Of a DNA stretch of 58,854 bases, positions 2 to 51,631 are shown one piece after another. The stretch comes from Anaeroplasmataceae bacterium. GTDB taxonomy: Bacteria > Bacillota_I > Bacilli_A > Acholeplasmatales > Anaeroplasmataceae. Both the position numbers and the translations under genes were made by a program. A model generated the notes under the pieces. That model worked only from the letters and a program-made list of their open reading frames with translations. It ran no database searches and was not told the DNA's origin. Within the stretch, counting starts at the first letter, position 1; each line of letters starts with the position of its first letter. Where the stretch lies: NCBI GenBank assembly GCA_029051735.1, contig JAIDKZ010000039.1:1-58854 (forward strand). Reading direction: 5' to 3'.

Positions 2-2611
2 CCCTTTGCTAAGTTAAAAATGAAAGACTCTGAACTTATTTTAAAATTAGAAGAGGCAGTAGAATATAAAAAGAATTTGGAATTATACAACCACACTTTA
101 TCAGCTTTACCAGAAGGTTACCGAAGTGTGGATTATGAAGTAATGCTTTTAGATTTGAAATCATTAGCCACATTGGATTTTGATTTGCAAATTACAGATG
201 CAAATTTCTTAAAATTAAAAACTATGATTGTAGATTGCATAACAACATTTAAAAGAAATCAGTTGGATTTAAATGCTTTTCAGACTTTATTTGATGTTGA
301 AGTGTTTGATTTAGTTAATGGGAATATTTCTACATTAGCACAAAGTTTTTCTAAAATGCTTGCTGATGAAGAAATGATTTTTCTTCATGTTGATCGATTA
401 GATGTGTTAAATCAAATCAAAAAATTAAACATTTTAGATTATTTGAATTGTGCTTTAGATCATAATATAGAATTAGAAAGACTTTCTAGTGCATATGAAC
501 GTTTTTTTCTAGAAGCAAATATTTATACTGAAATTGAAAATCGTTTAATATTAAAGGAATTTTCTAGTTTGGGTATTGAACGAATTGTTACCTCCTTTAA
601 GGAATACGATGAATCTCACTTAGAAGCAAATAAGGCTTTTATTATTTCAAAGCTTTCTAAGAAAAGACCAGAGGATAGTATTATGGCTGGTTCTCAATTT
701 TCAGTTTTAATTCGTGAATATAATAAGAGTAGGAAACAAATGCCAATTCGTATGCTTTTGGGAGAAATTAAAAATTTGATTTTTGATATTAAACCAGTCT
801 TTTTAATGAGTCCATTATCAGTTTCTACTTATTTAAATGGAGAGTTAAATTTGTTTGATTGTGTGATTTTTGATGAAGCCTCACAGGTTTTTGCATGGGA
901 TGCATTAGGGGCAATTTACCGTTCAAAACAATGCATTATCATTGGTGATAGCAAGCAAATGCCTCCTACTAATTTTTTCAATAGTATCATGGATGAGGAA
1001 GAGGATGATTATAATGATGTTATGGAATCTATATTGGATCGTGGGACAAGCACATTAGATACGAAACGACTCAACTGGCATTATCGTAGTAGAAGTGAGG
1101 AACTGATTGCATTTTCTAATCAAGAATTTTATGATTCAGGTCTAATTACTATTCCACAGGCTAAAGCACATGAAGAAGGGTTTGGAATAGATTTTCATTA
1201 TCTTTTCCAAGGGTGCTATGAAGTGCATTCTAGAACAAATTATAATGAAGCAAAATATATTTGTGATTTAGTATTTAAGTTTTTTGATTGTTATCCAGAT
1301 ATGTCTTTAGGAGTAGTGGCCTTTTCAAATGCTCAGGCGGAATTGATTTATGATTTAATTGAAGATCGTTTAGACAAACAGCCTATCTATCAGCCATTTT
1401 TTGCTGAAGATAAGGATGAACCATTTTTTGTAAAAAACTTAGAATCTGTTCAAGGAGATGAAAGAGATAGGATTATCTTTAGTATTTGTTATGGTTATAA
1501 CAAAGAAAATAAATTTTATCAACGATTTGGCCCTTTAAACAATTTAGGAGGAGAGCGACGATTAAATGTTGCAATCACTCGTGCAAAATATAATATATGC
1601 ATTGTAAGTTCTATAAAAAATACAGATATTAAAATAGAGAATACAAATTCATTAGGAGTTAAACTTTTGAAAAAGTATTTAGCCTATGCTGAAAATGTAA
1701 AAACTCCTAGCCATAGTATTGCTTTATCTGATGATGGTATTTTAAAAGATGTTGCTCAATTTCTAGAAGGAGAAGGATTCTTGGTTGAATCTAGAATTGG
1801 TTCTTCTAAATTCAAGGTGGATTTAGCTGTTCTTCATCCCATGACAAAGTCATATGTATGTGCAATTATGTTAGATGGAGATTCTTATGTCATTGGGAAT
1901 TGCACAGATGTTAATCGATTACAAGAGATGTTATTAAAACGCTTGGGATGGAAGTTTTATCGCTTATTTTCAACTCTATGGATTAATCAAAATAAAATTG
2001 AAAAAGAAAAATTAGTTGCATTTTTAAATTCAGCTTTTCAAGAAGAGATTACGGAAGAAGAAAAAACAAAAAATTCCTTTTTAATTGAAAATGATGAAAG
2101 CTTTGATGATACTTTTAAAAAGTATGATAAATTATCTGATAATCAGCTGAAAGAAATTTATCAAACGAAATCTACAAGAAAAGCGATTGAAGCAATCATA
2201 TTAAAGGAAGAACCTATTCATAAAGAGTATTTATTAAAAAGAATTTGTTTTATGTATGGAAGAACCAAAGTTACAAATATAGTAAAGAGTTATTTTGAGC
2301 AAGATATACAAGGACTTAATTTGTTGAATCAAAATGATTTTTTATCTTTTCATCAATTTAATGAATTGTCATTACGGTTATCTTTAGATCGGAATATAGA
2401 ATATGTTCATCCTTTAGAATTGCAAGATGCTATATATAAAATAGTAAAGAGAAGTAATGGAATAACAAAAGAAGGGTGTTTTAAAAATGTTGTTCAACTT
2501 TTAGGATACAGTCGTATGACAGAACATGCTATAACTTATTTAGAAGATGCATTAGTCTTTCTAAAACTAGAAGGAAAGATTGTAGAGAAACAGGATTGCT
2601 TATATGTATAA
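2..2611 (+). CDS. SF1 (Upf1/DNA2-like) helicase, C-terminal part; 5' end lies outside the window
   Basis: The frame is open from nt 2 (no stop upstream of the ATG at 20) and no Walker A motif is present, so the N-terminus is missing. Motifs seen: FDEASQ (II), IIIGDSKQMPPT (III), WHYRSRSEELIAFSN, VQGDERDRIIFS (V), GERRLNVAITRAK (VI). These are followed by a Vsr/DUF559-like endonuclease-fold segment (KVDLAV...MLDGDSY...RLGWKFYRL) and a DUF3320-like tail. Confidence 0.85.
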   Translation, partial: PFAKLKMKDSELILKLEEAVEYKKNLELYNHTLSALPEGYRSVDYEVMLLDLKSLATLDFDLQITDANFLKLKTMIVDCITTFKRNQLDLNAFQTLFDVEVFDLVNGNISTLAQSFSKMLADEEMIFLHVDRLDVLNQIKKLNILDYLNCALDHNIELERLSSAYERFFLEANIYTEIENRLILKEFSSLGIERIVTSFKEYDESHLEANKAFIISKLSKKRPEDSIMAGSQFSVLIREYNKSRKQMPIRMLLGEIKNLIFDIKPVFLMSPLSVSTYLNGELNLFDCVIFDEASQVFAWDALGAIYRSKQCIIIGDSKQMPPTNFFNSIMDEEEDDYNDVMESILDRGTSTLDTKRLNWHYRSRSEELIAFSNQEFYDSGLITIPQAKAHEEGFGIDFHYLFQGCYEVHSRTNYNEAKYICDLVFKFFDCYPDMSLGVVAFSNAQAELIYDLIEDRLDKQPIYQPFFAEDKDEPFFVKNLESVQGDERDRIIFSICYGYNKENKFYQRFGPLNNLGGERRLNVAITRAKYNICIVSSIKNTDIKIENTNSLGVKLLKKYLAYAENVKTPSHSIALSDDGILKDVAQFLEGEGFLVESRIGSSKFKVDLAVLHPMTKSYVCAIMLDGDSYVIGNCTDVNRLQEMLLKRLGWKFYRLFSTLWINQNKIEKEKLVAFLNSAFQEEITEEEKTKNSFLIENDESFDDTFKKYDKLSDNQLKEIYQTKSTRKAIEAIILKEEPIHKEYLLKRICFMYGRTKVTNIVKSYFEQDIQGLNLLNQNDFLSFHQFNELSLRLSLDRNIEYVHPLELQDAIYKIVKRSNGITKEGCFKNVVQLLGYSRMTEHAITYLEDALVFLKLEGKIVEKQDCLYV

Positions 2612-2614
2612 AAT

Positions 2615-2642
2615 AAAAAGATTCCTTGAGGGAATCTTTTTT
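2615..2642. terminator. Bidirectional intrinsic terminator between convergent genes
   Basis: 10-bp stem aaaagattcc (2616-2625) / ggaatctttt (2631-2640) with loop ttgag. An A-run lies on one side and a T-run on the other. It sits between the helicase stop (2609-2611) and the U32 stop (2641-2643, minus strand). Confidence 0.75.
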
Positions 2643-4884
2643 ATAATATCTCTTTATTGTAATGACCACGAGTATCAGTTTCTTTATTGAAAAAATTTGT
2701 TTTATTTTTTTGGATGAGTTTGTTTTGATATTTTTTAATGATTTGCGTAGTTTCTTCTTTGGATTCTGTTGTAAATTGTAAACGGAAAACTTGGATATTT
2801 TCAATTTCATTTAATTCATCAATTAAATTAAGAATTTTGCCATTGAGAATAGTGGTTGTACAATCTTCATGGCTTAAAATCGGAAATCTTCCATATTCAT
2901 CCTCAATAAAATAGGATTTTGTTTTACATGTTTTGCAAAGATTCAATTTTTTCAGTGGACAATACTTTGTATATAATAAATGTGCATGTCCATAAACAAT
3001 CATTTCTAAGTTGGGATATCCATCATTTTCTTTTTTATATGCTTCAATTAAATCCGCAATATTTTTTTTGTTCATTTCATAGGATAAGGTAACTCGGTTT
3101 ACATTTAAGGAGTGCAGAAGATGAACAGCTTTTGAATTAACAACGTTAAGTGAAAAGTCTGAAGTAATCTCATTTTTATTTCGGTAGGCATAAATTCCCC
3201 CATATCCACCAACAAGTAGAGGACCTGATTTGTCAGGATAGATGGTATTGTTTCTTCTTATTGTATTATCATTTGTGTATATAATTTTTATTCCACAGCC
3301 TAATGCTGCATCATATTGATCTTTTGTTGTGGCATAAACAGCTAGTACAGGTGAAGATTTTGGAAAAGTTATTTTTTGAATTGGCTTTTGCATTGCCTTT
3401 CCAATTTTATTTCTATTTAACCTTTCTTCATTCATTTGTTTTACAATTGATCTTCTTGCTTCATTTATTAACTTTGCTGGAATAAATACATTATCTGATT
3501 GATATGAGAGAGAAGATAATTGATAAACAGAATCTTTTAACCGATCAAATTGTTGTTGAAATTGTATTTCACTAGTAGGTATAGATTTTGCGGTAGCTAA
3601 TTGCTCCTCAGATTCATAGTAGATATGATGATTTTCACAACTTGCATTAACACAAAGTTTTTGATTTGTATAGGCGTACACTTCTAAAACTAATGGGAAA
3701 CGGCGATATTCCTTTGGATATGTTTTTTCAATAGAAGAATAAAATTCTATATCTTTTGTTTTATAAACAATATCTCCAATACTTAACTCTTCTTTTATTG
3801 CAATAAAACAAGAAGTAGTAGAAGAATGAATATAATTCCCTTTAGCATCATAGAGTTTTGCAACAGTTAAATTGATATCATTATTTTTATGATCAATCCG
3901 AATTATATCATTTTGGTTTAATTTTTGATTGAGATTTATTTCATAACCTATTTTAGTTTTATTTACAATTTTTCCAATTGGATAACCAAAATTATTTGGT
4001 TTTAATATGTTGGTAATGTTTTTTTTGTCTTCAAAAAAGATATACCCTTTTGTAAAGGTGCGGTTAAATGTTTTATTTAAGAGAATCTTTTCAGCAGGAA
4101 CTAAGGTATTGTCTAAAGCGTTTCGATATGTTTTTACAACATTTGCAACGTATGCTGGTTCTTTCATTCTACCTTCTATTTTTAAAGAATCAATGTGTTT
4201 TAAATCATTTATGTAATCTATTGTATTTAAATCTTTCATTGATAAAATATAAATGTCACTTGCAATTTCTTTATTGTTTTCATATAAGGTATAAGGCTTT
4301 CTACAAGAACCTACACATCTTCCACGGTTTCCACTTCGGTAGCCAATGAGCCCCGACATCAAGCAATTTCCTGAATAAGAAACACATAAAGCACCATGTA
4401 TGAAAATTTCTAAAGGTATTTTTGCAATCTTTTTAATTTCTTTGATTGTGTTTATATCTACTTCACGGGATAATACAACACGACTTGCTTTTAGTTCTTT
4501 AAAAAGCAAAGTTCCTTCTAAATCATCAATTCCCATTTGCGTTGAGCAATGGGCTTCTAAATCAGGGTAAGTTGATGTTACATAATGAAATGCGGCAAGA
4601 TCTTGAATAATTATTCCATCAACATTTGCTTCATAAAGTTGGTCTATTCGTTGCTTCATTTCTTCTAACTCATCTTCAAAAAGAATTGTATTTAGTGTCA
4701 CATAAATTTTTACTTTTCTCAAATGAGCATATTGGACAGCCTCTTTTAATGTATTCATATCAAAATTGGAGGCATATGCTCGTGCTCCAAATTTATTCAT
4801 TCCTAAATATATCGCATCTGCACCATTAGAAATTGCAGCAATTAATGCTTCGTAGTTTCCAGCAGGAGCTAAAAGTTCACTCAT
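2641..4884 (-). CDS. U32 family peptidase, long (about 750 aa) form
   Basis: The N-terminus MSELLAPAGNYEALIAAISNGADAIYLG...FGARAYA and the SREV...E.F.HGALC.SYSG.C segment are typical of peptidase U32 (PrtC/YhbU-like). The length and C-terminal half match the long clostridial form. RBS aaggtga lies upstream of the ATG. Confidence 0.9.
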   Translation of the reverse strand: MSELLAPAGNYEALIAAISNGADAIYLGMNKFGARAYASNFDMNTLKEAVQYAHLRKVKIYVTLNTILFEDELEEMKQRIDQLYEANVDGIIIQDLAAFHYVTSTYPDLEAHCSTQMGIDDLEGTLLFKELKASRVVLSREVDINTIKEIKKIAKIPLEIFIHGALCVSYSGNCLMSGLIGYRSGNRGRCVGSCRKPYTLYENNKEIASDIYILSMKDLNTIDYINDLKHIDSLKIEGRMKEPAYVANVVKTYRNALDNTLVPAEKILLNKTFNRTFTKGYIFFEDKKNITNILKPNNFGYPIGKIVNKTKIGYEINLNQKLNQNDIIRIDHKNNDINLTVAKLYDAKGNYIHSSTTSCFIAIKEELSIGDIVYKTKDIEFYSSIEKTYPKEYRRFPLVLEVYAYTNQKLCVNASCENHHIYYESEEQLATAKSIPTSEIQFQQQFDRLKDSVYQLSSLSYQSDNVFIPAKLINEARRSIVKQMNEERLNRNKIGKAMQKPIQKITFPKSSPVLAVYATTKDQYDAALGCGIKIIYTNDNTIRRNNTIYPDKSGPLLVGGYGGIYAYRNKNEITSDFSLNVVNSKAVHLLHSLNVNRVTLSYEMNKKNIADLIEAYKKENDGYPNLEMIVYGHAHLLYTKYCPLKKLNLCKTCKTKSYFIEDEYGRFPILSHEDCTTTILNGKILNLIDELNEIENIQVFRLQFTTESKEETTQIIKKYQNKLIQKNKTNFFNKETDTRGHYNKEIL

Positions 4885-5045
4885 AATTCATCACCTTTTT
4901 TAATTTTATCATATTCTTTTAGTTTTTAAAATTATTTTATAGAAATGATAACTTTTCTTTAAAAAAATAATTTTTCTCTAGTTTGCTTCTTAGAAATAAG
5001 GTATAATGGATTTATGAGGATTTGGTGTGAAGAAAGAGGGATTGT

Positions 5046-10479: not shown

Positions 10480-10494
10480 TTCGAGGTGCTAAAG

Positions 10495-11007
10495 ATGAAT
10501 AAGGTTCTTTTAATTGGTAGAATTACCAAAGATCCAGAAATCCGATATACACAAACTGGTGTACCTACAGTTACATTTACTTTAGCTGTAGATCGTGGCA
10601 TGAGAGATGCTAGCGGAAATAGACAAGCAGATTTTATCAGTTGTGTAGCATGGAGAGGACAAGCAGATTTTATTTCAGGATTCATTAAGAAAGGATATTT
10701 AATGAGTGTTGAAGGTAAAATTCAAACAAGAAATTATCAAGGTCAAGATGGCCAAACAAGATATGTTACAGAGGTTGTTTTAGATGCTGTAGAAAATTTA
10801 CAGCCAAGAGATCCTAATGCACAACCTACGCAAGGCTATCAGCAAAATCCAAACTATCATCAGAATACTACTTATCAAGGATACAATAATCCTTCCTATG
10901 GTGCAACTTATCAACAAAATAGTAATGCGCCAACTTATGAGGCTCCAGCTGCGGAAGCTCCTCAGAGTTTTTCTGTAGATGTAGCAGATGATGATTTACC
11001 ATTTTAA
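10495..11007 (+). CDS. ssb: Single-stranded DNA-binding protein
   Basis: MNKVLLIGRITKDPEIRYT OB-fold N-terminus, Q/N/Y-rich linker and acidic DDDLPF tip. The ATG at 10495 follows GAGGTG. The ORF-track start at 10486 (GTG) is less likely. Confidence 0.95.
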   Translation: MNKVLLIGRITKDPEIRYTQTGVPTVTFTLAVDRGMRDASGNRQADFISCVAWRGQADFISGFIKKGYLMSVEGKIQTRNYQGQDGQTRYVTEVVLDAVENLQPRDPNAQPTQGYQQNPNYHQNTTYQGYNNPSYGATYQQNSNAPTYEAPAAEAPQSFSVDVADDDLPF

Positions 11008-11025
11008 AATTGAAGGAGGAATATT

Positions 11026-11271
11026 ATGCAACAAAATAAAAGAAACGATCGTGGCGAGCGTCGTGGTCGTAAAAAGGTTTGCTACTTTACTCAAAACCAT
11101 ATTGAACATATTGATTTTAAGGATGTTGATTTATTAAGAAAGTTTGTAACAGATAGAGGAAAAATTTTACCTCGTCGTATTACTGGAACATCTGCAAAAT
11201 ATCAAAGAAAACTAGCTATTGCTATTAAGCGTGCTCGTCATATGGCTTTATTACCATTCGTAAAGGATTAG
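11026..11271 (+). CDS. rpsR: 30S ribosomal protein S18
   Basis: [10 protein letters not shown]....I..IDFKDV.LL+KF....[30 protein letters not shown] signature. RBS GAAGGAGG. Confidence 0.97.
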
Positions 11272-11293
11272 TAAATTAGGATATGATTTTATT

Positions 11294-11328
11294 AGACTAT
11301 TGGTTCAATCAATAGTCTTTTGTTTTTT
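11294..11328 (+). terminator. Intrinsic terminator after rpsR
   Basis: 9-bp stem agactattg (11294-11302) / caatagtct (11310-11318), 7-nt loop, T-rich tail tttgtttttt. Confidence 0.8.
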
Positions 11329-11406
11329 AAAAATAATAAAATAATCCATTTTTACTTTTAATTTTTTCAAAAAGGGTGTATGATAATGAATGGTATGAGG
11401 TGGAAA

Positions 11407-12387
11407 ATGAAAAAATTATTTATATTAATTATTATAATATTTGGATTTGGTTTGGCTTCTTGTGCAGAAGAAAAGGAACAACCAAATCATCAAGATAACA
11501 ATCCTAGTGAAGTTAATATTTATTTACCTGATGGAACACCTGCTTTAGCATTGGCAAACATGCTAGATGAAGGTTTTTCTTATAAGGAAAGTAAAACAAC
11601 ATTTCACATTGTGCAAGCGTCAGAAATTGCAGCTAGAGTATCACAAGACACTTGTGATTTAGCAATTATGCCAACTACAGCAGCAGCACAATTATATAAA
11701 AAAGGAATAAAACTACAGTTGGCAAGTGTTAATGTCTTTGGTAACTTATTTATCACTGGAACTAATGAGATTGCTCGTTTAGAGGATTTAAAAGGGAAAA
11801 GGATATTAACTACTGGAGCCACAACAATTCAAATGGTTGAGTATATCTTAAAGAAAAATAATATTCCATTTGAAGAGGCTGGACAGGTGATTGATGGAAA
11901 AGTTGCCTTATCAGTAGTGAGTGATGCTTCTGAAATTATTCCTCAGTTAAAACAAGCTGTTCAAAAAAATACAGAACTTTATGGTGTTTTAGGAGAACCT
12001 CAAGTAACTAAAGCTCAAAGCATGATTTCAGATTTGAAAATTAGTGTTGATCTTCAGGCAGAATATAAGACAATTACTTCTTATGATGGGTATCCACAGG
12101 CTTGTCTAATTGTAAAACAGGAGTTTGCTAAATCCTACCCACAATATGTGCAGGACTTTTTGAAAAAATTAGAAGGAAATGAATCATATTTAAACGCTAA
12201 ATATTCTTCTTTGCCTGAAGTATTTCAAAAATATGAAAGCAATTTAGCAAATATGAATTTTACATCTGATACAATTAAACGCTGTAATATTCGTCTTGAA
12301 AAAGCAGAATCTGTAAGTGAATCTGTTATTGCGTATGTAAAGGATTTAATTCAATTAGACTTAGAAGAGAATTTCTTTTTAAAATAG
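11407..12387 (+). CDS. ABC transporter substrate-binding lipoprotein (NMT1/ThiY/SsuA-like class)
   Basis: MKKLFILIIIIFGFGLASC is a signal peptide with lipobox LASC. GAGGTGG precedes the ATG at 11407. The general look of the nitrate/sulfonate/HMP-binding family and the SBP-permease-ATPase order support the call. Substrate unknown. Confidence 0.75.
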   Translation: MKKLFILIIIIFGFGLASCAEEKEQPNHQDNNPSEVNIYLPDGTPALALANMLDEGFSYKESKTTFHIVQASEIAARVSQDTCDLAIMPTTAAAQLYKKGIKLQLASVNVFGNLFITGTNEIARLEDLKGKRILTTGATTIQMVEYILKKNNIPFEEAGQVIDGKVALSVVSDASEIIPQLKQAVQKNTELYGVLGEPQVTKAQSMISDLKISVDLQAEYKTITSYDGYPQACLIVKQEFAKSYPQYVQDFLKKLEGNESYLNAKYSSLPEVFQKYESNLANMNFTSDTIKRCNIRLEKAESVSESVIAYVKDLIQLDLEENFFLK

Positions 12388-12402
12388 TTGGAGGATTACA
12401 CA

Positions 12403-13149
12403 ATGAAAAAACTGCTAGTTAATTTAATATATCCACTGGCAGTTGTCCTTTTCGTCTTATTTGTTTGGTATTTGGCGTGTTGGTGGATTGATGTAGATTT
12501 GATTTTGCCTACACCATACCAAGCATTTTCCAATGTGATAAATTATCTAGGGGATTCAGCTTTTTGGATATCTTTAGGATGGACTTATTTAAGATGCATT
12601 GAAAGTTTTTTGATTGCATTAGGAATTGCATTAATTGGTTCAGTTTTAGCCTATGTGTTTCATAATGTTGAAAAGATATTAAATCCATTTATGGCAGTTG
12701 TACGGTCAATACCTACTATGTCAATCATATTGATTTTGATTATCGTGATTCACCCTGAACAAACACCTATTGTTGTTGCTGGAATAGTAATTTGTCCAAC
12801 TTTATATCAAGCCTTTTTGACAGGATTTCATCAAATTGATAAAAGACTAGTAGAGATGGCTAATGTCTATCAAGTTTCTAAAAGGAGTCAAATTGTTCAT
12901 TTTTATATTCCAAGTATGAAACCAGTTATCTTAGAAAATACTGCTACAGCATTTAGTTTAAATATTAAATTAATTATAGCTGCAGAAGCATTGGCACAAA
13001 CTAGAAACAGTATAGGAAAATTAATGCAGTTTGCAAAAGTAAATATTGAGATTGAAAAATTATTTGCTTTAACAATTATAGCAGTAATTCTTAGTATGCT
13101 TAGTGAGTCTTTCATTCGTTTTTTGAAGAAGGTGATATGTCATGATTAA
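12403..13149 (+). CDS. ABC transporter permease (TauC/SsuC/ThiX-like)
   Basis: Six hydrophobic segments and an EAA-like loop (AAEALAQTRNSIGKLM). GGAGGA lies upstream of the ATG at 12403. Confidence 0.85.
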   Translation: MKKLLVNLIYPLAVVLFVLFVWYLACWWIDVDLILPTPYQAFSNVINYLGDSAFWISLGWTYLRCIESFLIALGIALIGSVLAYVFHNVEKILNPFMAVVRSIPTMSIILILIIVIHPEQTPIVVAGIVICPTLYQAFLTGFHQIDKRLVEMANVYQVSKRSQIVHFYIPSMKPVILENTATAFSLNIKLIIAAEALAQTRNSIGKLMQFAKVNIEIEKLFALTIIAVILSMLSESFIRFLKKVICHD

Positions 13150-13819
13150 ATTAAAAAATATCACAAAAAGATATAATGAACAAATCATATTTGAGGATTT
13201 TAATTTGAATATTACTGAAAATCAAATCACTTGTATTTTAGGAGAAAGTGGCGTTGGAAAGACTACCTTATTAAATATAATTGCAGGCATAACTCCTTAT
13301 CAAGGGAGTGTTTCTTTAATTGATAAAGTTTCCTATATTTTTCAAGAGCCAAGACTGATTTTGACAATGACTATTGAAGAAAATTTAAAGTTTACATCTC
13401 CCAATGCAAGTGATGAAAATATTCATTCTATCCTTCAAATGTTAAAGATAGAAGATAAAAAAAGAATGTTTCCTAATCAATTGAGTGGTGGAGAGCAACA
13501 GCGAGTTTCTATCGCAAGAGCATTTTTATTTGATGCACCTATTATTTTAATGGATGAGCCATTTTCTTCTTTAGATCTTTCTTTAAAATATCGCTTAATT
13601 TGCCATTTTGCTTCTTTATGGAAAAAAACAAATAAAACTGTAATTTTTGTTACACACAATGTGGATGAGGCATTATGGTTAGCAAATGAAATTTTGATAC
13701 TATCTAAAGGTAAAATTGTACAACAATATAATGTGGATGAAGACTTGCCAAGAGCATTAACTAATCAAGAGGAATTAAGAAAAAAAATAATAATGAATTT
13801 AATGAAGGATTCAAATTAG
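13142..13819 (+). CDS. ABC transporter ATP-binding protein
   Basis: Walker A GESGVGKTT, signature LSGGEQQRV, Walker B ILMDEPFSSLD, H-loop VTHN. 8-nt overlap with the permease gene. Confidence 0.93.
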   Translation: MIKLKNITKRYNEQIIFEDFNLNITENQITCILGESGVGKTTLLNIIAGITPYQGSVSLIDKVSYIFQEPRLILTMTIEENLKFTSPNASDENIHSILQMLKIEDKKRMFPNQLSGGEQQRVSIARAFLFDAPIILMDEPFSSLDLSLKYRLICHFASLWKKTNKTVIFVTHNVDEALWLANEILILSKGKIVQQYNVDEDLPRALTNQEELRKKIIMNLMKDSN

Positions 13820-13869: not shown

Positions 13870-13898
13870 TTGATTATTTATAAATATTTTGATATAAT
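13870..13898 (+). promoter_or_regulatory. Sigma-A promoter of gdpP-rplI-dnaB-prfA
   Basis: TTGATT (13870-13875), 17-nt spacer, TGaTATAAT (hexamer 13893-13898). Confidence 0.65.
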
Positions 13899-13925
13899 GT
13901 TAAATTAGAAGAGGGGTGAAGTGAA

Positions 13926-16364
13926 TTGAAAAAATTTATAGCTACACTTGTTTCAATTAGTATAACTGTTATTTGCGTTTACTTTACATATTTTTTTCAT
14001 AAAGATGCAGTCTTGTTTTATGTATTTTTAGCGTTATCTATCCTTTTTTTATCTGCATCTATTGTAACAGTAATGCTTTTATTTAATAAAAAGAATATTG
14101 AAAAAATCACTTGGTTAGAAAACAGATTAAATGTTTGGAATTCCATTTCTCATCATGTATCTGCTGCAGGAGATGAAGCTTTTACAAAACTTCCCATTGG
14201 AATCATCGTATATGATTCTAGTATGGAGGTCAAGTGGGCAAATGATTATGCGAAGCAAGTCTTTAAAGATAATTTGATTAATAGTTCACTAGATTCTATA
14301 ACTAGCGGATTCATTGATGAAATTAAAGAAGGAAAAGAGCAAATGCTGATTACAGCTTATGAATCTACTTATGATGTAGTCCATAATGTGGAAAATCAGA
14401 TTTTATATTTTTTTGATGTTACATATCGAGAAGAGACTTTGAGAAAATACAATAATCGCATTACCGCTTTTGCATTAATTGATATTGACAATTTAGAAGA
14501 ATCTTTGAAGCGATATGACATGCAAGAGCAATCTAATATTCGAGGACAAATATTAGGTGTAATTTCAGACTGGTTGAGAAATAATGGATGTTGCTTGGAA
14601 AATTTATCTAGCAATCAAATGTTAGCTGTATTTGATCATGAAGCTTTAAATAAAATGATTGCAGATAAGTTTTCTGTATTGAATTCAGTTCGAGCAATTT
14701 CTGATAAGAATCACTTAAAAGCAAGTATGTCTATGGGAGTTGCTTGTTTTGATGTAGAGGCTTCAGAACTGATAACTTTAGCACAAAATGCAATAGAATT
14801 AGCAGCAAAGCGTGGTGGAGACCAAGTTGTTGTTAATATTCAAAATCAAAAGATACAGTATTTTGGCGGAAATACAAATTCATTAGAAAAAAATACATTA
14901 GTTGAAGCTCGTATTCAAACAATGGCACTTAAAGAAGCAATTGAAAATAGTAGTAATGTTATTATTATGTGTCACAATTTAGCAGATTGTGATGCGATTG
15001 GATCTATGCTTGGTGTTTGGTATTTGGCTAGTACATCTACTAAAGATTGTAAGATGGTTTTTGAACCAAAATTGGCGGATGTCACTGTACAAAAAATTTT
15101 TGAGCAAATAAAAAATCATACCAATAAATCCATTTATAATGGGTTTATTACAAAAGCAGAAGCAAAGGATTTGATTAAGCCAGATACATTGTTAATTATG
15201 ACAGATACTCAATCTCCAAGACTTGCAATGTTCCCTGATATTTTAGATTCTATTAAAAATGTTTCTGTTATTGATCACCATCGTGCATCAGATGCAGGAT
15301 ATAGTGAAACAATATCTTATTATGTGGAAACCTATGCATCTTCTACAGTTGAACTTGTTTCAGAAATGTTCTTATTTTATAACAAAAGTTTTGAGTTAGA
15401 CCCATTTGTTGCTTCAATAATGCTTGCTGGAATTGTAGTTGATACAAATAATTTTACATATCGAACTCGAACAAGAACTTTTGAAGCTGCATCAACTTTA
15501 AATACCATGGGAGCAGATATGGTATTGGTTCGTCGTATGTTAAGAGACTCCTATGAAGAGGAGAAGAGATTGGCTGAGGCAATGGTAAATGCGATGATTT
15601 ATGAAAAACGATTCGCTATCGTTGCTGAACCTAATGATACAATTATACCAGACCGAACAACTTTAGCTAAGATTTCAGATAAACTTTTGACAATTGAGGG
15701 AATTGAAGTTGCATTTACGATTGGTAGAATTGATAAAGATACTGTTGGTATTTCAGCACGTAGTAATGATATTAATGTTCAAATTATTATGGAAGAAATG
15801 GAAGGTGGCGGACATTTTAATGCTGCTGCTACCCAGTTAAAAGGAATTACAGTAGAAAAGGCAAGAGAACGATTATTAGAGATTATCAGACGTGATTATA
15901 TAGATACAGGAGATGGTAAAATGAAGGTTATTCTAATTTCAGATGTTAAAGGCAAGGGGAAAAAGGATGATATTCTAGAAGTTGCAAATGGCTATGGAAA
16001 TTTCTTGATAACAAATAATTTAGCTGTACTAGCAACTGAAGAAAATTTAAAGAAACTTGCTGAAGCAAAAGAAGAAGAAAAAATAGCAAATGAGAATCGA
16101 AGAAATGTTTTAGAAAAATTAAAAGCAGAGATTCAAGATAAATTTATTTCTGTTTATATCAAAGTTGGAGCTGATGGCAAGAACTTTGGACACATTACTA
16201 CAAAGTATATTTGTGAAGAATTTGAAAATCAAACTGGAATTCATTTGGATAAGAAGAAGGTAGAATTGCCTGCTGAAATCAATTCAGTTGGTATATTTAC
16301 TGCAAATGTTCGTTTGGATAAGGATATTGTTGCAACGTTTGAAATTAATGTTATTGAAAAGTAG
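13926..16364 (+). CDS. gdpP: GdpP-type cyclic-di-AMP phosphodiesterase whose reading frame continues, without a stop codon, into ribosomal protein L9
   Basis: TTG start after AGAGGGGTGAAG. Two N-terminal TM helices, a PAS-like segment and a degenerate GGDEF region (SMSMGVACF...[11 protein letters not shown]). DHH motifs ([18 protein letters not shown]) and DHHA1 GGGH ([11 protein letters not shown]). The GdpP-like part is 665 codons (13926-15920) and is followed directly in frame by the L9 sequence. Confidence 0.9.
15921..16364 (+). CDS. rplI: 50S ribosomal protein L9 (nested in frame in the gdpP ORF, with its own RBS and ATG)
   Basis: [30 protein letters not shown] matches the conserved L9 N-terminal domain. 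147 aa is the normal L9 length. GGAGA lies 7 nt upstream of the ATG at 15921. The gdpP-rplI-dnaB order matches Bacillus yybT-rplI-dnaC. Confidence 0.9.
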
Positions 16365-16375
16365 AGGTTAAGAAT

Positions 16376-17722
16376 ATGGAACAGCAATTACCTACTGTGC
16401 CTTGCAACATTGAAGCAGAAAAAGCTTTAATTGGTTGTATTTTAATTGATGAAAATTTAATAGTAGAGCTGTCAGATATTCTCATGCCAGATGATTTTTA
16501 TGATAATAAGAATCGATTAATTTATCGAACGATGTTAAATTTGTTTAAAGAAGGAAAGGGAATTGATGTTACTACTGTAGTATCTTCACTTCAAGCATCA
16601 AACCTTTTAGATCAATGTGGTGGTATGGAATATATTGCTAGTATAGCAGATGTTAGCTATTCCACTTTAAACTTTGAATCCTACAGCAATTTGATTTATG
16701 AGTCATCAATTAAACGTTGTGCAATTCAAAAACTTTCAAAATTGGCTGAAGATGGATATAATCATAAATTAGAAGCATATGATTATGTTGAATTGGTTGA
16801 AAAGGAAATATTTGAATTATCCAAGAGAAGAAAGGTAGATTCTTTTAAGCCAATTTCTGTTGTAAGTAAGAATGTTATGGCAAATACAGAAAATAATGCA
16901 AACCGTAGTACAGAAGTTATTGGTTTAGATACTGGCTTTGGTAGTTTGAATCAGTACACTCAAGGATTTCAGGCTGGACAGTTGATTATCTTGGCAGCAA
17001 GACCAGCAATGGGAAAATCCGCTATGGCAATGAATTTGGCTGTGAATATAGCAAGAAGAAATAAGTCTGGAACAGCTACAGTTGCTATATTTTCTTTAGA
17101 GATGTCTGCTGAACAATTAGTAGAACGTATGGTTGCGTGTGATAGTAATATTAGACTAAATTATATTAAAAGTGGACATATCACAGCTAAAAATGATTGG
17201 ACAAGATTTAATACGGCGTGTACACAATTAGGTAAACTTAATTTGTATTTTGATGATTCATCAAATTCAACAGTTGCCTCTATAAGAGCGAAATGTCGTA
17301 AGCTCGCTAGTGATCAAGCGCTAGATTTTGTCGTTATAGATTACCTCCAGTTGATTGAAAGTGATTCTAGTATGGCTAGAGCTTCTCAGCAGGAGCGTAT
17401 TTCTAAAATATCTAGAAGTTTAAAATTGATGGCTAGAGAATTAGAGGTTCCAGTATTGGCTTTATCTCAGCTTTCTCGTGCTGTAGAACAAAGAGATGAT
17501 AAACGCCCTATCATGGCTGATTTGCGTGATTCTGGAGCAATTGAACAAGACGCAGATATCATTATGTTTCTTTATCGTGAGGATCGATATAATCCGCAAA
17601 CTCCAAGAAAAAATGAAGCAGATTTAATCATTTCTAAGAACCGGTCTGGTTCAACTCATGAAGGATTACCTTTTATTTTTACAGGAGAATATTCACGATT
17701 TAAAGAAAAGAAAGAGGAATAA
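16376..17722 (+). CDS. dnaB: Replicative DNA helicase (DnaB family; DnaC in Bacillus nomenclature)
   Basis: PCNIEAEKALIGCILID N-terminal domain, Walker A ARPAMGKSA, IDYLQLI, SQLSRAVEQR, ADLRDSGAIEQDAD. Confidence 0.96.
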   Translation: MEQQLPTVPCNIEAEKALIGCILIDENLIVELSDILMPDDFYDNKNRLIYRTMLNLFKEGKGIDVTTVVSSLQASNLLDQCGGMEYIASIADVSYSTLNFESYSNLIYESSIKRCAIQKLSKLAEDGYNHKLEAYDYVELVEKEIFELSKRRKVDSFKPISVVSKNVMANTENNANRSTEVIGLDTGFGSLNQYTQGFQAGQLIILAARPAMGKSAMAMNLAVNIARRNKSGTATVAIFSLEMSAEQLVERMVACDSNIRLNYIKSGHITAKNDWTRFNTACTQLGKLNLYFDDSSNSTVASIRAKCRKLASDQALDFVVIDYLQLIESDSSMARASQQERISKISRSLKLMARELEVPVLALSQLSRAVEQRDDKRPIMADLRDSGAIEQDADIIMFLYREDRYNPQTPRKNEADLIISKNRSGSTHEGLPFIFTGEYSRFKEKKEE

Positions 17723-17723
17723 A

Positions 17724-18800
17724 ATGATTGATCGATTGAAAATTATGGATGAAAGATATGAAGAAATTACAAAGCTTCTATCTGATCCAGAAGTTGTTAC
17801 TGATATAAAAAAATTAACAGAGCTTTCTAAGGAACAAAGAGGAATTGAAAAGGCTGTAATGCTATATAGAGAAGAAGTTAAACTTTTAAATTCAATCCCA
17901 GATTTAAAAGAAATGAAAAATTCAGATGATGCTGAAATGGCAGAAATGGCTTCATTAGAATTAGAAGAAGCTACTGCCCGTATTTCTCAAATTGAAGAGG
18001 AAGTTAAAATTCTTTTATTGCCAAAAGATCCAAACGATGAAAAGGATGTTATTGTAGAGATTCGAGGTGCTGCCGGCGGAGATGAAGCAAATATTTTTGC
18101 TGGAGATTTATTTAGAATGTATAATAAATATGCAGAATCTAAAGGGTGGAAAATCACTGTATTAGATGCAATGCCATCTGAAATGGGAGGATATTCTCAA
18201 ATTCAATTTAAGGTTAGTGGAGATATGGTATATTCATATCTAAAATACGAATCTGGTGCGCATCGTGTACAGCGTGTTCCTGCAACAGAAGCACAAGGTA
18301 GAATTCACACATCAACCTCAACAGTTTTGGTTATGCCAGAAGCAAGTGAAATTGACTTTGATTTGGATATGAATGAGATTCGTGTTGATACATTCTGCTC
18401 ATCAGGTCCAGGAGGACAAGGGGTGAACACGACGTATTCTGCAGTACGTGTGACACATGTTCCTACAGGAATGTTTGTTGCTTGTCAGACTTATCGTTCC
18501 CAGCATGAGAATAAAGCTGCTGCTTTAGAATTGTTAAAAACTAGAATGTATGATCAAATCATTCGTGAAAGGGAAGAGGCAGAAGGTGCAGAGCGCCAAT
18601 CCTTAATTGGTAGAGGAGATCGTTCAGAAAAAATAAGAACGTATAATTATCCTCAAAATAGAGTTACAGATCATCGTATAGGATTTACAATTAATCGTTT
18701 AGATGCCATCATTGATGGAAAGTTAGATTTGGTTATTGAACAATTAATAAATGAAGATCAAAAAAGAAAACTTTCTAGTGGTGAAGCAATTCGCTTATAG
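17724..18800 (+). CDS. prfA: Peptide chain release factor 1
   Basis: MIDRLKIMDERYEEI start, PAT tripeptide (RVPATEAQGRIHTS), GGQ motif (SGPGGQGVNTT). The ATG at 17724 lies 1 nt after the dnaB stop. The longer ORF-track start (17658) is inside dnaB. Confidence 0.95.
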   Translation: MIDRLKIMDERYEEITKLLSDPEVVTDIKKLTELSKEQRGIEKAVMLYREEVKLLNSIPDLKEMKNSDDAEMAEMASLELEEATARISQIEEEVKILLLPKDPNDEKDVIVEIRGAAGGDEANIFAGDLFRMYNKYAESKGWKITVLDAMPSEMGGYSQIQFKVSGDMVYSYLKYESGAHRVQRVPATEAQGRIHTSTSTVLVMPEASEIDFDLDMNEIRVDTFCSSGPGGQGVNTTYSAVRVTHVPTGMFVACQTYRSQHENKAAALELLKTRMYDQIIREREEAEGAERQSLIGRGDRSEKIRTYNYPQNRVTDHRIGFTINRLDAIIDGKLDLVIEQLINEDQKRKLSSGEAIRL

Positions 18801-19174: not shown

Positions 19175-20695
19175 ATGGATCTTCAAGAACAATTTGCATA
19201 TTTAGAAGCTCATGATAACGAAAATTCTAAAGCATATTTACGTCTTTTTTTAGAGGATTCAGTAAATGAGGGAATTTTAATTCAAGAATTTTATCCTTTT
19301 TTTAGAAGGATTTTTAAAATAGAGGGTAGTAATCATCTAGCTCAAGTTTTTAAAATCGCATCCAATTATTTAGATTTATTTCCAGATTATGAGAATGGTT
19401 ATCTTTTACTTTACTTAAAGATGAATTATTACTATTCTATTGGTGATTATGTATTTGCGCTACTTTTAATTGATAAATTATCCAAATTAGATATACCACC
19501 TAACTTTAGATTATCTATTCGTATTATGCAACTGATTATTTATCAGTATCAAAATAAGCATAAAGAATTAGATGCGTTATTGAGTTTTATAGAAAATAAT
19601 GAATTTTTTATGCAAGCAAATATCTATATTCGAGGAATCTATTATGTAAATGCAACATGGATTTCTGTCATTCGTAATGATTCATTGAAAGCAAGCGATT
19701 ATTTAACTAAGATGAATCGTAGTTTAAACACAAAAAACATTTCTGCAAACTTTAAAATATATTTTACTACTACAATTAAATGCTTTGTAAATATTTTAAG
19801 TATTCAAAATGAGGCAGTAGAACAAAATATTAATAAGATAGCAACATGTTTTTATAAGTTTGTCATGAATTCTTTTTCATTTACAAATGCTTCAAATGAA
19901 GATAGTGATAACTTTATCTTTGTATTAAAGAAGTTAGCAAACATCTATACTGTGAAAATGGAGTATGAAATTTGTGAAAAAATCATTATGGATATGAAGC
20001 ATCCTATTTTACGTAATTTAATTAACTATTATAATTATTTATATCAAACCAACAACCCTTACTATTTAAAAAATGATCTTATGCGTTCTAAACATATACA
20101 AGCTTTATATGATTTTTATATTGATAATCAAAAGAGTTATGCTTATGCATTAGAAGAAACATTAAAACTTCAGACATTAGAAGAAAAACTAAATCAATTA
20201 GAATCAAAATACAGTTTTGATTTATTAACAAATTGTTACAATCGTAATTATTTAGTAGAGTTAGAAGGAAAAGAAATAGAAAACGCATGTGTCATTTATT
20301 TAGATTTAGATAATTTAAAACAGGTTAATGATACACACGGTCATAATAGTGGTGATGTATATTTAAAGGTTTTTGGAAATATTCTTTTAAAAAGTTTTAG
20401 CAAAGAAAATATGCAGGTATTCCGTTATGGTGGAGATGAATTTGTTGTATTAATTCATGGAGAAAATGAAGATTCTTATATACGATTGGTTCAAAGATTG
20501 ATTGCTTCTGCACAGACTGCTTCTTTGGCAAATTCAAATACGATATCAATAGGATTTAGTTGTGGAATTTATATTATTCGTGAGAAAAGCAAATTAAAGG
20601 ATGCCATTCATTTTGCAGATGAAGCAATGTATGAATGTAAGGCAGCAAGAAAAGAGCATAAGGATGTTTATTATGTAATTAAAAGACAGGAGTAG
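19175..20695 (+). CDS. Diguanylate cyclase (GGDEF domain) with a helical N-terminal domain of about 330 aa and unknown function
   Basis: C-terminal D.D.LK.VND..GH..GD..L and an intact RYGGDEF active-site motif. The N-terminal two-thirds is helical/TPR-like with no recognisable signature. No TM segment. Confidence 0.88.
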   Translation: MDLQEQFAYLEAHDNENSKAYLRLFLEDSVNEGILIQEFYPFFRRIFKIEGSNHLAQVFKIASNYLDLFPDYENGYLLLYLKMNYYYSIGDYVFALLLIDKLSKLDIPPNFRLSIRIMQLIIYQYQNKHKELDALLSFIENNEFFMQANIYIRGIYYVNATWISVIRNDSLKASDYLTKMNRSLNTKNISANFKIYFTTTIKCFVNILSIQNEAVEQNINKIATCFYKFVMNSFSFTNASNEDSDNFIFVLKKLANIYTVKMEYEICEKIIMDMKHPILRNLINYYNYLYQTNNPYYLKNDLMRSKHIQALYDFYIDNQKSYAYALEETLKLQTLEEKLNQLESKYSFDLLTNCYNRNYLVELEGKEIENACVIYLDLDNLKQVNDTHGHNSGDVYLKVFGNILLKSFSKENMQVFRYGGDEFVVLIHGENEDSYIRLVQRLIASAQTASLANSNTISIGFSCGIYIIREKSKLKDAIHFADEAMYECKAARKEHKDVYYVIKRQE

Positions 20696-40469: not shown

Positions 40470-40498
40470 TTGACAACCATAGGTTAGCATGGTATACT
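40470..40498 (+). promoter_or_regulatory. Near-consensus sigma-A promoter of the giant-lipoprotein island
   Basis: TTGACA (40470-40475), 17 nt, TGgTATACT (extended -10; hexamer 40493-40498). It lies inside the 5' extension of the ORF-track call, which argues for the start at 40570. Confidence 0.75.
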
Positions 40499-40569
40499 TA
40501 AAAATGTATCGTAAAGCGTTTTCATTAAAGTGGTTTGATGTGAATACTTTATATAGAAAGGGTGAAAAT

Positions 40570-43500
40570 ATGAAAAAGAAAAAATTTTTTCTAGGGGTAG
40601 CACTTGCCGCAACAGCATTAGGGTTAGCAGCTTGTAGTGGTAAAAAGGACCCAACGCCAAATCCAGGGGATGATAATCCACCAGTAGTACAAGAATTTGT
40701 TGTACAATTCAATACAGGAACAGGCGGATCCAGTGTTGCTTCTCAAACAGTAAAAGCAGGGGAGAAAGTAAAGAAACCTGCACAAGATCCAACTAGAGAA
40801 AACTATGTGTTTGATGGTTGGTATAAAGATTCTGGATATGTGACAGAATATGATTTTAATTCTGAAGTGAACAAAAGTTTTACTATTTATGCTAAATGGA
40901 AACCAGTTCAGCAAGAAGTTAATAAATATAGTGTAACATATAATAAAAACAATCATGGAGCAGATACAGCTTCATTAACAGATGTTACAGCATTACCAGC
41001 AGAGTTACCAGTATTAAGTGAAGAAGGCTGGATTTTTGGTGGCTGGTATTATGACACTAATTTTGACAATAAAGCAAATGGTGGAGATGAAATTTCAGCA
41101 AACACTATTTTGTATGCGAAGTGGACAAAAGATGGATCAGATACTCCAGAACCAGTTACAAAATATAGTGTAACATTTGATAAGAAAGGTCATGGAGCAG
41201 ATACAGCTTCATTAACAGATGTTACAGCATTACCAGCAGAGTTACCAGTATTAAGTGAAGAAGGCTGGATTTTTGGTGGCTGGTATTATGATTCAAGCTT
41301 TGACAATAAAGCAAATGGTGGAGATGCCATTACTAAGAATACCACTTTATATGCGAAGTGGAGTGAAGAAGTTGAGGGACCAATTGAGCTTACTCAAATT
41401 CAAATTAGTCCTGAGTCCGTTTCTATAGTTCAAGGTCAAACCAGTCAGTTATCTGTTTTATATACACCTCATAATGCACAAGACTCTGATAAAGTAATTA
41501 CTTGGTCAAGTTCAAATGAGAATGTAGCTACTGTTGATCAATCAGGACTTGTTTCTGCAGTAGCAGTAGGAAATGCAACTATCACTGCAACTTCTGCAAA
41601 TGGAAAAGTTTCTACTTGTTCAGTTACAGTTACAGAGCAAAGTGTTCCTCTTAGAGATTTTACAATTCAAGTAGGTGATGGTAACACAGATCGTGTTACA
41701 TTAACTCCTACACATAGCACAGAGACTTTAGTTGCAAAATTGAATCCATCTAATGCTACAGGAGTAAAAATTGTTTGGACTTCTTCTGATCCTGCAATTG
41801 CAAAGGTTACTCCAAATGATGAAAATGGGTTAGAAGCAACTGTAGAAATGTTGTTACAAGGCACAGAACAAATTACAATCACTGCAACTGTTGTTGGTGA
41901 TGAGACTAAAACAGCTTCTGTATTCTGTACAGCAGATACTTATTATGGAACAATTATTAAGGAAGAAAAAGCTCCATTAATTTTAAATGAAACATTTGTA
42001 AACTATGATGCAAACGCTAAATTGCCTGAATGGAGTGGCGCTTGGGGAACTAAGGGTGTTTATGGTGCTGCTGGAGATGGAGCAACATATGATACACACT
42101 ACGTTAGTATTTTACATAATGATCAAAACGGAAATAACAGAGCTACACTTGTAGATCCAGATGGTTCAAGTGTTTCTGGTGGTTCTGCAAGATTAGTGGT
42201 AGATTATGGCAAAGTTGATGGAACAATTATTGGTTATGCAAATGTAAGATTCTCTAATCCAGGTACTTCATGGGCATTTATGCAATTCAATGGTGTAAGT
42301 GCTAATAAATCTGGAGAGGTTTTAGGATTAAGATTAGCTGAAAAAGTTAAGAATGATAAAAAATATTTAGTTCATTATCGTTTAGATGGTGGCACTGATA
42401 CATTACCACAAGATGCTTCAGGTCAAGATATTGCATTACAAGTAGTTGATGGTGGTACACTTCGTATTTACTATGAGTTCACTTGGGATGAAACAAAAGA
42501 GGTTTATTTAGCATCTATCATTATCAACGGAACACAATATTTAAAAGATGTTGAAACATCAATTAAAGAATTTAGAGGTATTCAATTTGTATCAAGTAAT
42601 AAGGCTAATAAGAGTGTATCTGTGGATAATATTGCAGTAGCAAATAATCCAGTTGGTCTTGATAAAACACAAGAAAAACTTACAGCTTCAATAACTGATT
42701 TATATAATCAATTAACTGCAGTTGAAGAAACTTATACAGAAGAGAATAAAGCTCTATTAGATGAAATGTTTGCAAAAGCTAAAGCAGACATTGCTGCAGT
42801 AGCAGTTACAGACACTGTAACACTTTTAGAAGCTAAAGCACAGGCAAATGAAATTTATTCATTAGCTGTTCAAGCTATGAATGCTGTTGAAACAAAAGCA
42901 GATACAGCTTTAAATGATGCAAAGGCAGCTGCAACTGATGAATTGAATGGTTATGTTAATTCTTCTGATTATACAATTAATAAAGTAGAATATGATGCTG
43001 CAATAGAGGCAGGTTTAACTGCAATTGCAAATGCAAAAACAGAAGATGCAGTTGCATTAGCATTAGTTAATGCAAAGGCAGTAATTGATGAAATACAAAA
43101 TGATGCAACAGCATTAGATGCGATAAAGACTGCTGCAATAGAAGAATTAAGTTCTTTTGAAGGTGGATCAGATAACTTTACAATTACCACAACTTTACAA
43201 TTGAAACAATCTGATGGCACAACACATTCTACTCAGTATTCTAATGTATCTACTTATCAAAATGCTTATCAAGAAGGTGTTCGTTTAATTACAACTGCTT
43301 CAGAAAAGCCAGCAAATCAAACTGCATCTTATTTAGAGGCTGTTGCTGAAATAGAAGCACAGTTGGCTAGTGCTAAAGAACAAATCACAAGATGTAGCAA
43401 TAATGATGAAATGTTGGCAGAAATCAAATCTGTAGCTCAAAATCACATTAATCGTTATAGAGCTGATGAAAGAACAGCAGATAAGATTGCAGATTGTGAA

Positions 43501-45789: not shown

Positions 45790-45811
45790 AATTAAATAAA
45801 ATTATTAGTAA

Positions 45812-45850
45812 TTTAAAGGAATGACCAATTGATCATGGCATTCCTTTAAA
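45812..45850 (+). repeat. Perfect 12-bp inverted repeat (hairpin) between lipoprotein genes 1 and 2, lacking a U-tract
   Basis: tttaaaggaatg (45812-45823) / cattcctttaaa (45839-45850), 15-nt loop. The downstream sequence is tgctattcttt, not a T-run. Confidence 0.8.
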
Positions 45851-45883
45851 TGCTATTCTTTAAGAAAGAGAAAGGAATAAAAG

Positions 45884-51613: not shown

Positions 51614-51631
51614 AATTATAGGTAAAGAAAT

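Follow-up and report, generated by a model that had tools for sequence, protein, structure and literature searches.

The window analysed here, positions 1-58,854 of contig JAIDKZ010000039.1 from an Anaeroplasmataceae bacterium, raises a double question: are a membrane signalling enzyme and a ribosomal protein truly encoded in a single reading frame, and if so, is the ribosomal protein made only as part of a fusion? The enzyme is GdpP, a predicted membrane-anchored cyclic di-AMP (c-di-AMP) phosphodiesterase, whose gene lacks a stop codon and continues in frame into rplI, the gene for ribosomal protein L9 (bL9). An earlier note on this DNA had left three origins open (a lineage-typical arrangement, a strain-specific loss of the stop codon, or an assembly error at one codon), and had proposed that the locus could make both free L9 and an 812-amino-acid (aa) fusion. 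We conclude, with a probability of roughly 0.8, that this is a lineage-typical fused operon that would yield two products and whose fused state would be under selection.

One frame holds complete GdpP and complete L9

The stop-less frame lies where it had been placed before, with 665 GdpP codons followed by 147 L9 codons. Its features are listed below; domain coordinates here and later are aa of the 812-aa product unless given as window positions.

13926..16364, + strand: fused gdpP-rplI open reading frame (ORF) of 812 codons, opening with TTG and closed by the TAG at 16362-16364
13929..14084, + strand: two N-terminal transmembrane helices, aa 2-23 and 28-53, from the AlphaFold2 (AF2) model and the hydrophobic sequence
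14160..14420, + strand: PAS_GdpP domain, aa 79-165 (PF21370, 66.6 bits)
14478..14852, + strand: degenerate GGDEF_GdpP domain, aa 185-309 (PF24898, 83.3 bits)
14955..15887, + strand: DHH/DHHA1 phosphodiesterase catalytic module, aa 344-654, from Pfam, conserved motifs and matches to 9n0l and 5xsi
15921..16364, + strand: bL9 coding part, 147 codons plus TAG, from L9_N, L9_C, TIGR00158 and 1div

The GdpP part comprises codons 1-665, its last base at 15920, and the L9 part codons 666-812, codon 666 being the ATG at 15921; no stop separates the complete GdpP from the complete L9. TGA, TAA and TAG are all absent in frame before the terminal TAG, and the choice between genetic code tables 4 and 11 is therefore immaterial to the fusion.

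Pfam returned six domains in the expected order, each exceeding its gathering score, with DHH at aa 344-503, DHHA1 at aa 577-654, and Ribosomal_L9_N (aa 666-711) and Ribosomal_L9_C (aa 730-810) scoring 62.5 and 69 bits. Together with the AF2 helices, these matches bear out the anatomy that the earlier note had read from the translation: two transmembrane helices, a PAS region, a degenerate GGDEF domain, and DHH/DHHA1 with GGGH. The protein has the domain order of the GdpP type (two transmembrane helices, PAS, degenerate GGDEF, DHH, DHHA1) along with its DxD, D, DHH and GGGH motifs, and residues D354, D356, D427, D450-H451-H452 and G627-G628-G629-H630 are invariant in 42 diverse fusions, down to 26% identity. 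Membership of the downstream part in bL9 follows from the presence of both L9 domains and from a full-length match to the L9 equivalog TIGR00158 (99.8-104.4 bits, cutoff 58.6); the Lys/Gly-rich rRNA-binding motif DVKGKGKK of the N-domain is retained. Solved structures matched both parts: the cyclic-di-AMP phosphodiesterase PDB 9n0l over aa 76-659 (E 8.5e-84), the Staphylococcus aureus GdpP catalytic domain 5xsi (E 2.8e-61), and Geobacillus stearothermophilus L9, 1div, whose residues 1-147 aligned to aa 666-811 (E 3e-26). None of the solved structures matched by sequence is a GdpP-L9 fusion. With their family-defining domains and catalytic motifs all kept, both halves look functional.

Unfused GdpP (YybT/Pde1) of Bacillus, Staphylococcus and Streptococcus (5XSI, 9N0L) shares the two transmembrane helices, the PAS domain, the degenerate GGDEF domain and the DHH/DHHA1 module with DHH and GGGH, and in the operon its gene likewise stands immediately before rplI and dnaB. 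It stops ~28-30 residues past GGGH, whereas the window frame runs on into L9. Free bL9, such as that of G. stearothermophilus (1DIV), is the same full-length two-domain protein as the L9 part of the window; unlike it, the window L9 would, in one of its two presumed forms, be N-terminally joined to a membrane enzyme via ~4 residues. The AF2 model (mean predicted local distance difference test score, pLDDT, 80; predicted template modelling score, pTM, 0.42) joins the last DHHA1 helix (643-660) to L9 strand 1 (665-670) by ~4 coil residues, which speaks against a long flexible tether. The inter-domain geometry of that model was considered for judging whether fused L9 could reach its 23S rRNA site, and was discarded in view of the pTM.

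The fused frame is typical of its lineage

We compared the protein with its 120 best clusters, which extended down to 57% identity, and checked the junction in a C-terminal alignment. All six domains, or contig-end fragments still including L9, were found in 119 of the 120, most of them 809-818 aa long, and the aligned junction was free of indels. The closest match, at 96% identity, came from the Anaeroplasmataceae metagenome-assembled genome (MAG) MGBC122639; in NCBI, ENA and Logan data, dozens of independent contigs carried copies 96-97% identical that have the same junction. The one exception among the clusters, P0102 (locus L083), was considered as an unfused close relative and rejected, its frameshift falling inside the Lys/Gly-rich run of L9 and its junction having no stop. 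On this metagenome contig, from a 67%-identical relative, positions 1501-3938 hold a 684-aa GdpP and a 113-aa L9 C-terminal fragment; the split results from a frameshift in an AAAGG-rich Lys/Gly run of the L9 N-domain, probably a sequencing error.

An HMMER search of 1.84 billion 50%-identity representatives gave ~41 full-length fusions (805-877 aa) at that clustering level, reaching 29% identity; below ~35% identity, ordinary unfused GdpPs of 645-690 aa were found. A scan of one genome per GTDB species, seeded with a 12-sequence alignment, returned 80 loci, and in every one at least 661 stop-free codons lead up to the L9 start in the same frame. The orthologous gdpP-rplI junctions, where the earlier note had suggested looking for a stop codon, thus contain none (0/80). 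The fused loci belong to Anaeroplasmataceae, Anaeroplasma bactoclasticum, Acholeplasma laidlawii, A. oculi, A. equifetale, Mariniplasma and Paracholeplasma, and further to several Candidatus Phytoplasma species, Izemoplasmatales and Mycoplasmatota bacterium zrk7; complete genomes among them include those of A. laidlawii, Ca. P. australiense, Ca. P. rubi and Mycoplasmatota zrk7. Identity of the window protein to the Acholeplasma and phytoplasma copies is 36-42%.

The fused frame is real, old and conserved, and the fused operon form is typical of the Acholeplasmatales/Anaeroplasmataceae/phytoplasma/Izemoplasmatales lineage. Among the three origins proposed before, the lineage-typical one has held up, with 80/80 species loci and 119/120 best clusters fused, and a strain-specific stop loss is contradicted by the same frame in the related species. 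A single-codon error at the junction is excluded for practical purposes, because the same junction occurs in 96-97% identical copies on many independent contigs.

The architecture was already catalogued

As a discovery the fusion carries little weight, having been catalogued for years in a curated NCBIfam/CDD model and in two genome-comparison supplements. The NCBIfam equivalog NF011110 (PRK14538), named 'putative bifunctional signaling protein/50S ribosomal protein L9', models exactly the GdpP-L9 architecture; the combination of DHH-DHHA1 with L9, which had been suggested as a query for domain-architecture databases, is therefore on record. The window protein scored 758.9 bits against this model (cutoff 707), aa 26-812 aligning to model positions 50-835 of 838. 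Its examples are A. laidlawii ACL_0196, Ca. P. mali ATP_00177, Ca. P. australiense PA0149 and onion yellows phytoplasma PAM012. Like these members, the window protein has the same six domains, a length of ~810-840 aa and a stop-free junction in orthologous loci; there is no structural difference, and its source is most likely an uncultured gut Anaeroplasmataceae lineage.

Table S3 of Grosjean et al. 2014 (PMC4014445) marks RPLI as "fusion" for ATP_00177, PA0149, PAM012 and ACL_0196, and has a single RPLI entry in each of those four complete genomes. The supplement of Siewert et al. 2014 (PMC4221730) places the same orthologue group between rpsR and dnaB, with the annotations "50S ribosomal protein L9" and "exopolyphosphatase-related protein", and "bipartite protein" for ACL_0196. 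The novelty implied by the earlier note is thus withdrawn: the architecture is known and curated, and the window holds a further member. Our literature search found no study of the function or expression of a GdpP-L9 fusion; searching by ACL_0196, PAM012, PA0149 and ATP_00177 gave no relevant hit, and no proteomic or profiling data were found. What is new in the present analysis is clade-wide evidence that the L9 start keeps the marks of a working initiation site.

The L9 start resembles a working initiation site

15909..15913, + strand: internal Shine-Dalgarno (SD) sequence GGAGA, within the linker codons for Gly662-Asp663 and spaced 7 nt from the L9 ATG

This GGAGA had been pointed out before and is present at the expected spacing from ATG 15921. 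Its duplex with the anti-SD (-7.4 kcal/mol) is in the top 2.4% of in-ORF positions and comparably strong to those of the neighbouring real starts in the window (dnaB -6.5, gdpP -8.8 kcal/mol). Across the 80 species loci the L9 start codon was ATG in 70 and GTG in 10, and never a non-start codon. The GTG-start loci, mostly from Mariniplasma and Acholeplasmataceae MAGs (L044-L046, L048, L050-L052, L058, L062 and L036), have upstream GGAGGTGGAGA-type SDs, encoded as Gly-Gly-Gly-Glu.

Anti-SD pairing was computed on the -20..-4 region against the 16S 3' end, with in-frame codons of the same ORFs as controls. The median duplex energy was -9.2 kcal/mol at the junction versus -0.7 at controls, and the junction ranked in the top 5% in 90% of loci. 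GGAG or GAGG occurred at -18..-5 in 68 of 81 junctions, compared with 4.5% of 52,270 control codons. The peptide encoded there varies: 46 different pentapeptides precede the L9 start (e.g. TGDGK, LEAEK, KEDVN, GGGEP and GDNTP), and the codon phase of the SD motif was 0 in 67 loci, 2 in 8 and 1 in 2. Three codon phases and an unconserved linker peptide together indicate that the SD is kept at the nucleotide level. Codon choice was also biased, GGA making up 70% of Gly codons before a G-initial codon at the junction versus 22% elsewhere in the gene (Fisher, p = 9e-27). Folding energy of the -25..+20 region was -2.4 versus -4.9 kcal/mol in controls, with less structure in 74 of 81 loci (Wilcoxon, p = 1.6e-13); the window's own values were -0.5 versus -4.7 kcal/mol.

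An in-frame start, an SD and an accessible ribosome-binding site (RBS) are thus found together, beyond what the protein would appear to require, as expected of internal initiation, and ATG 15921 is a probable internal translation start on this comparative evidence.

Ancestral layout and the gdpP start

16376..17722, + strand: dnaB-type replicative helicase gene (DnaB, DnaB_C), the usual downstream neighbour of rplI, in the same order in the unfused outgroup locus L081

Among unfused forms, those of Mycoplasmatota bacterium WC44, Turicibacter and Bacillales are the closest. The WC44 order is rpsF-ssb-rpsR-gdpP-rplI-dnaB, and its gdpP ends in ...AAAGAGGACTAA, followed after 1 base by the rplI ATG; the two outgroup loci have TAA and a 1-nt spacer (L081) and TAG and an 11-nt spacer (L082) before that ATG. 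GdpP and L9 genes are separate neighbours in Mycoplasma bovis (PMC10720645), and gdpP of Streptococcus pyogenes is co-transcribed with its operon neighbours (PMC3711813). The fused form would have arisen from an ordinary Firmicute gdpP-rplI-dnaB operon, in which ancestral loss of the gdpP stop would have put both genes in one frame. Upstream the orders differ: L081 (1435-4468) runs rpsF-ssb-rpsR-gdpP-rplI-dnaB, whereas in the window (10486-13819, + strand) a three-gene ATP-binding cassette transporter (11380-13819), made up of a permease, an ATPase and a binding protein weakly matching SsuA, stands between ssb (10486-11007) and the gdpP-rplI fusion.

13911..13919, + strand: gdpP SD GAGGGGTGA, anti-SD duplex -8.8 kcal/mol
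13870..13898, + strand: promoter-like site TTGATT-17-TATAAT with an upstream TG (extended -10), 28 nt before the ORF; a candidate operon promoter

AGGTGA-type SDs homologous to the window's precede the N-terminal start in related loci, and 36 of 48 relatives begin gdpP with ATG behind a good SD. A low output of the fusion owing to a weak TTG start was considered and, on these grounds, does not extend to the clade; with a good SD of its own across the clade, gdpP probably gives the long form at normal GdpP levels. A promoter scan of the region found 40 sites against 32.2 +/- 5.3 in shuffles, not clearly above chance, and lent no support to an internal rplI promoter, the lone site at 15703-15730 being unremarkable. 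Searches of the window for Rfam families and tRNAs found none, which leaves the junction without a riboswitch or other RNA element to account for it.

Two probable products of one frame, and the alternatives

Initiation at the gdpP start would give membrane-anchored GdpP with a C-terminal L9, ~92 kDa; initiation at the internal SD and ATG or GTG would give free 16-kDa L9 for the ribosome. GdpP would always carry L9, because no stop ends gdpP translation, and demand for L9, which would far exceed that for a membrane signalling enzyme, would be met by a separate supply. Two products from one frame are likely the most economical reading, well supported by the comparison. Where the earlier note had proposed both free L9 and the 812-aa fusion, the conserved start codon, SD and unstructured RBS lend the proposal comparative support.

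In-frame internal initiation that gives long and short products is familiar from infB (IF2 alpha/beta), cheA (long/short) and clpB, although the analogy concerns the mechanism alone. As in those genes, an internal SD and start lie within a longer ORF and the C-terminus would be shared; unlike them, the short product here would be the whole product of a once separate gene, and the evidence comes from comparison only.

The fused state itself also appears constrained. The last 10 codons before L9 offer a mean of 7.3 single-base routes to a stop, any of which would bring back the ancestral two-gene layout, and stops are found in 0 of 81 loci; in 78 of them GGGH and the L9 start lie 33-36 aa apart. 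The lack of any regained stop, together with linker turnover and fixed spacing, suggests purifying selection on the fused form, so that the fusion, and not just its parts, would be maintained.

Several points weigh against these conclusions. The SD is mostly in phase 0, encoding Gly-Asp/Glu/Gly, and a preferred Gly-acidic linker could explain part of its conservation. The 81 loci are phylogenetically related and were treated as independent, so the p-values above overstate significance. Ribosomes elongating from gdpP could interfere with internal initiation. The selection argument assumes enough neutral divergence. Finally, two loci are without a recognisable SD at the junction (aaagaaagtttaaaaaat ATG; -1.0 kcal/mol): L074 (~4870-4900) and L075 (~4828-4858), from Ca. 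Phytoplasma rubi and potato purple top phytoplasma. In these two, L9 may be initiated without an SD, or the fusion may be the sole product.

The alternative that survives best, though we consider it unlikely, is a neutral origin: stop loss in the tight operon of a lineage undergoing genome reduction would have left the fusion as a by-product, free L9 and GdpP would suffice for function, and the L9 attached to GdpP would be a harmless passenger. With the outgroup stop already 1 to 11 nt from the rplI start, one small mutation would have been enough, and the genomes of the lineage are reduced and compact; the AF2 model, at a pTM of 0.42, has no confident inter-domain packing, and no function was reported for the fusion in the literature searched. 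Indirect evidence against this account is the absence of reversion in 81 species despite ~7 single-base stop routes per locus and linker turnover, and a narrow linker length, with 33-36 aa following GGGH in 78 of the 81 loci. If selection is instead at work, the L9 moiety on GdpP might serve for 50S docking, for ribosome-abundance sensing, or merely for stabilisation of the enzyme. The specific proposal that it is functional, docking the membrane phosphodiesterase dimer on the 50S L9 site or competing with free L9, is quite doubtful, and tethering of ribosomes to the membrane via the fusion is speculation.

It is improbable that the 812-aa fusion is the only product, with the role of L9 filled by the membrane-bound fusion (tethered ribosomes) or by proteolytic release. 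Such a reading accords with one open frame without a stop, with the two phytoplasmas lacking a junction SD, and with the fused gene being the only RPLI homologue listed in four complete genomes (PMC4014445); some Mollicutes moreover have lost L9 or can dispense with it (Grosjean et al. 2014, PMC4014445), and sub-stoichiometric L9 might be tolerated. It does not account for ATG or GTG at the L9 start in 80/80 loci, and it leaves the SD, the GGA bias and the unstructured region unexplained. Proteolytic release fits poorly with a linker of ~4 residues and 46 variable pentapeptides, unlike a conserved protease site, and ribosome-stoichiometric amounts of a membrane signalling enzyme seem unlikely.

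The weakest alternative, an assembly or sequencing error or a strain-specific stop loss in this one genome, has a negligible probability: nothing in its favour was found, though the split relative P0102/L083 shows that such contigs do contain errors, and it is countered by the junction in all 80 species loci and in the ~41 clusters at 50% identity, by the near-identical copies on independent contigs, by the curated NCBIfam model, and by the nature of the P0102 split, which is a frameshift in the L9 Lys/Gly-rich run and no junction stop.

Other features of the window

The window has ~30% GC and a positive GC skew in every 2-kb window along positions 1-58854. Of its ORFs of at least 100 aa, 33/37 are on the + strand, and 3/4 of those on the minus strand lie inside longer + strand ORFs; the window is a strongly leading-strand-biased stretch.

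Downstream of dnaB is prfA (17658-18800, + strand), for release factor 1 (RF1; NF001859, 491 bits) and not the frameshift-containing prfB. The prfA ORF as listed overlaps the dnaB end by 65 nt, and RF1 models match from residues 21-28 onward; the true prfA start is therefore probably a downstream codon. Three genes downstream of the fusion, a 506-aa protein (19175-20695, + strand) has a canonical GGDEF diguanylate cyclase domain (TIGR00254, 101.9 bits), which suggests c-di-GMP signalling in this wall-less lineage.

At 20-2611 (+ strand) an 863-aa protein combines AAA_11/AAA_12 superfamily-1 helicase domains with a C-terminal REase_MTES_1575 nuclease domain, and may have a role in defence or repair. 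The stretch 40489-55945 (+ strand) is taken up by three giant ORFs in tandem (1766, 1909 and 1437 aa), in which Listeria-Bacteroides repeats (Flg_new) are numerous and a Big_2 domain is present; a pectate lyase domain is found in two of the ORFs and a CBM77 pectin-binding module in one. They look like surface pectin-degrading enzymes of gut or rumen Anaeroplasmataceae.

Implications

An order-level lineage, plant-pathogenic phytoplasmas included, keeps a ribosomal protein fused to a membrane second-messenger enzyme. Adjacency of gdpP and rplI is conserved throughout Firmicutes, which makes the fusion a Rosetta-stone hint that c-di-AMP turnover and the ribosome are functionally linked. If the L9 moiety were functional, that would explain why no lineage has regained a stop, and through its docking, or its competition with free L9, the turnover of c-di-AMP (or pApA/nanoRNA) in these wall-less bacteria would be coupled to translation near the membrane or to the ribosome pool. 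The conserved internal start, the lack of stop reversion and the fixed linker length make the question experimentally tractable in the cultivable Acholeplasma laidlawii.

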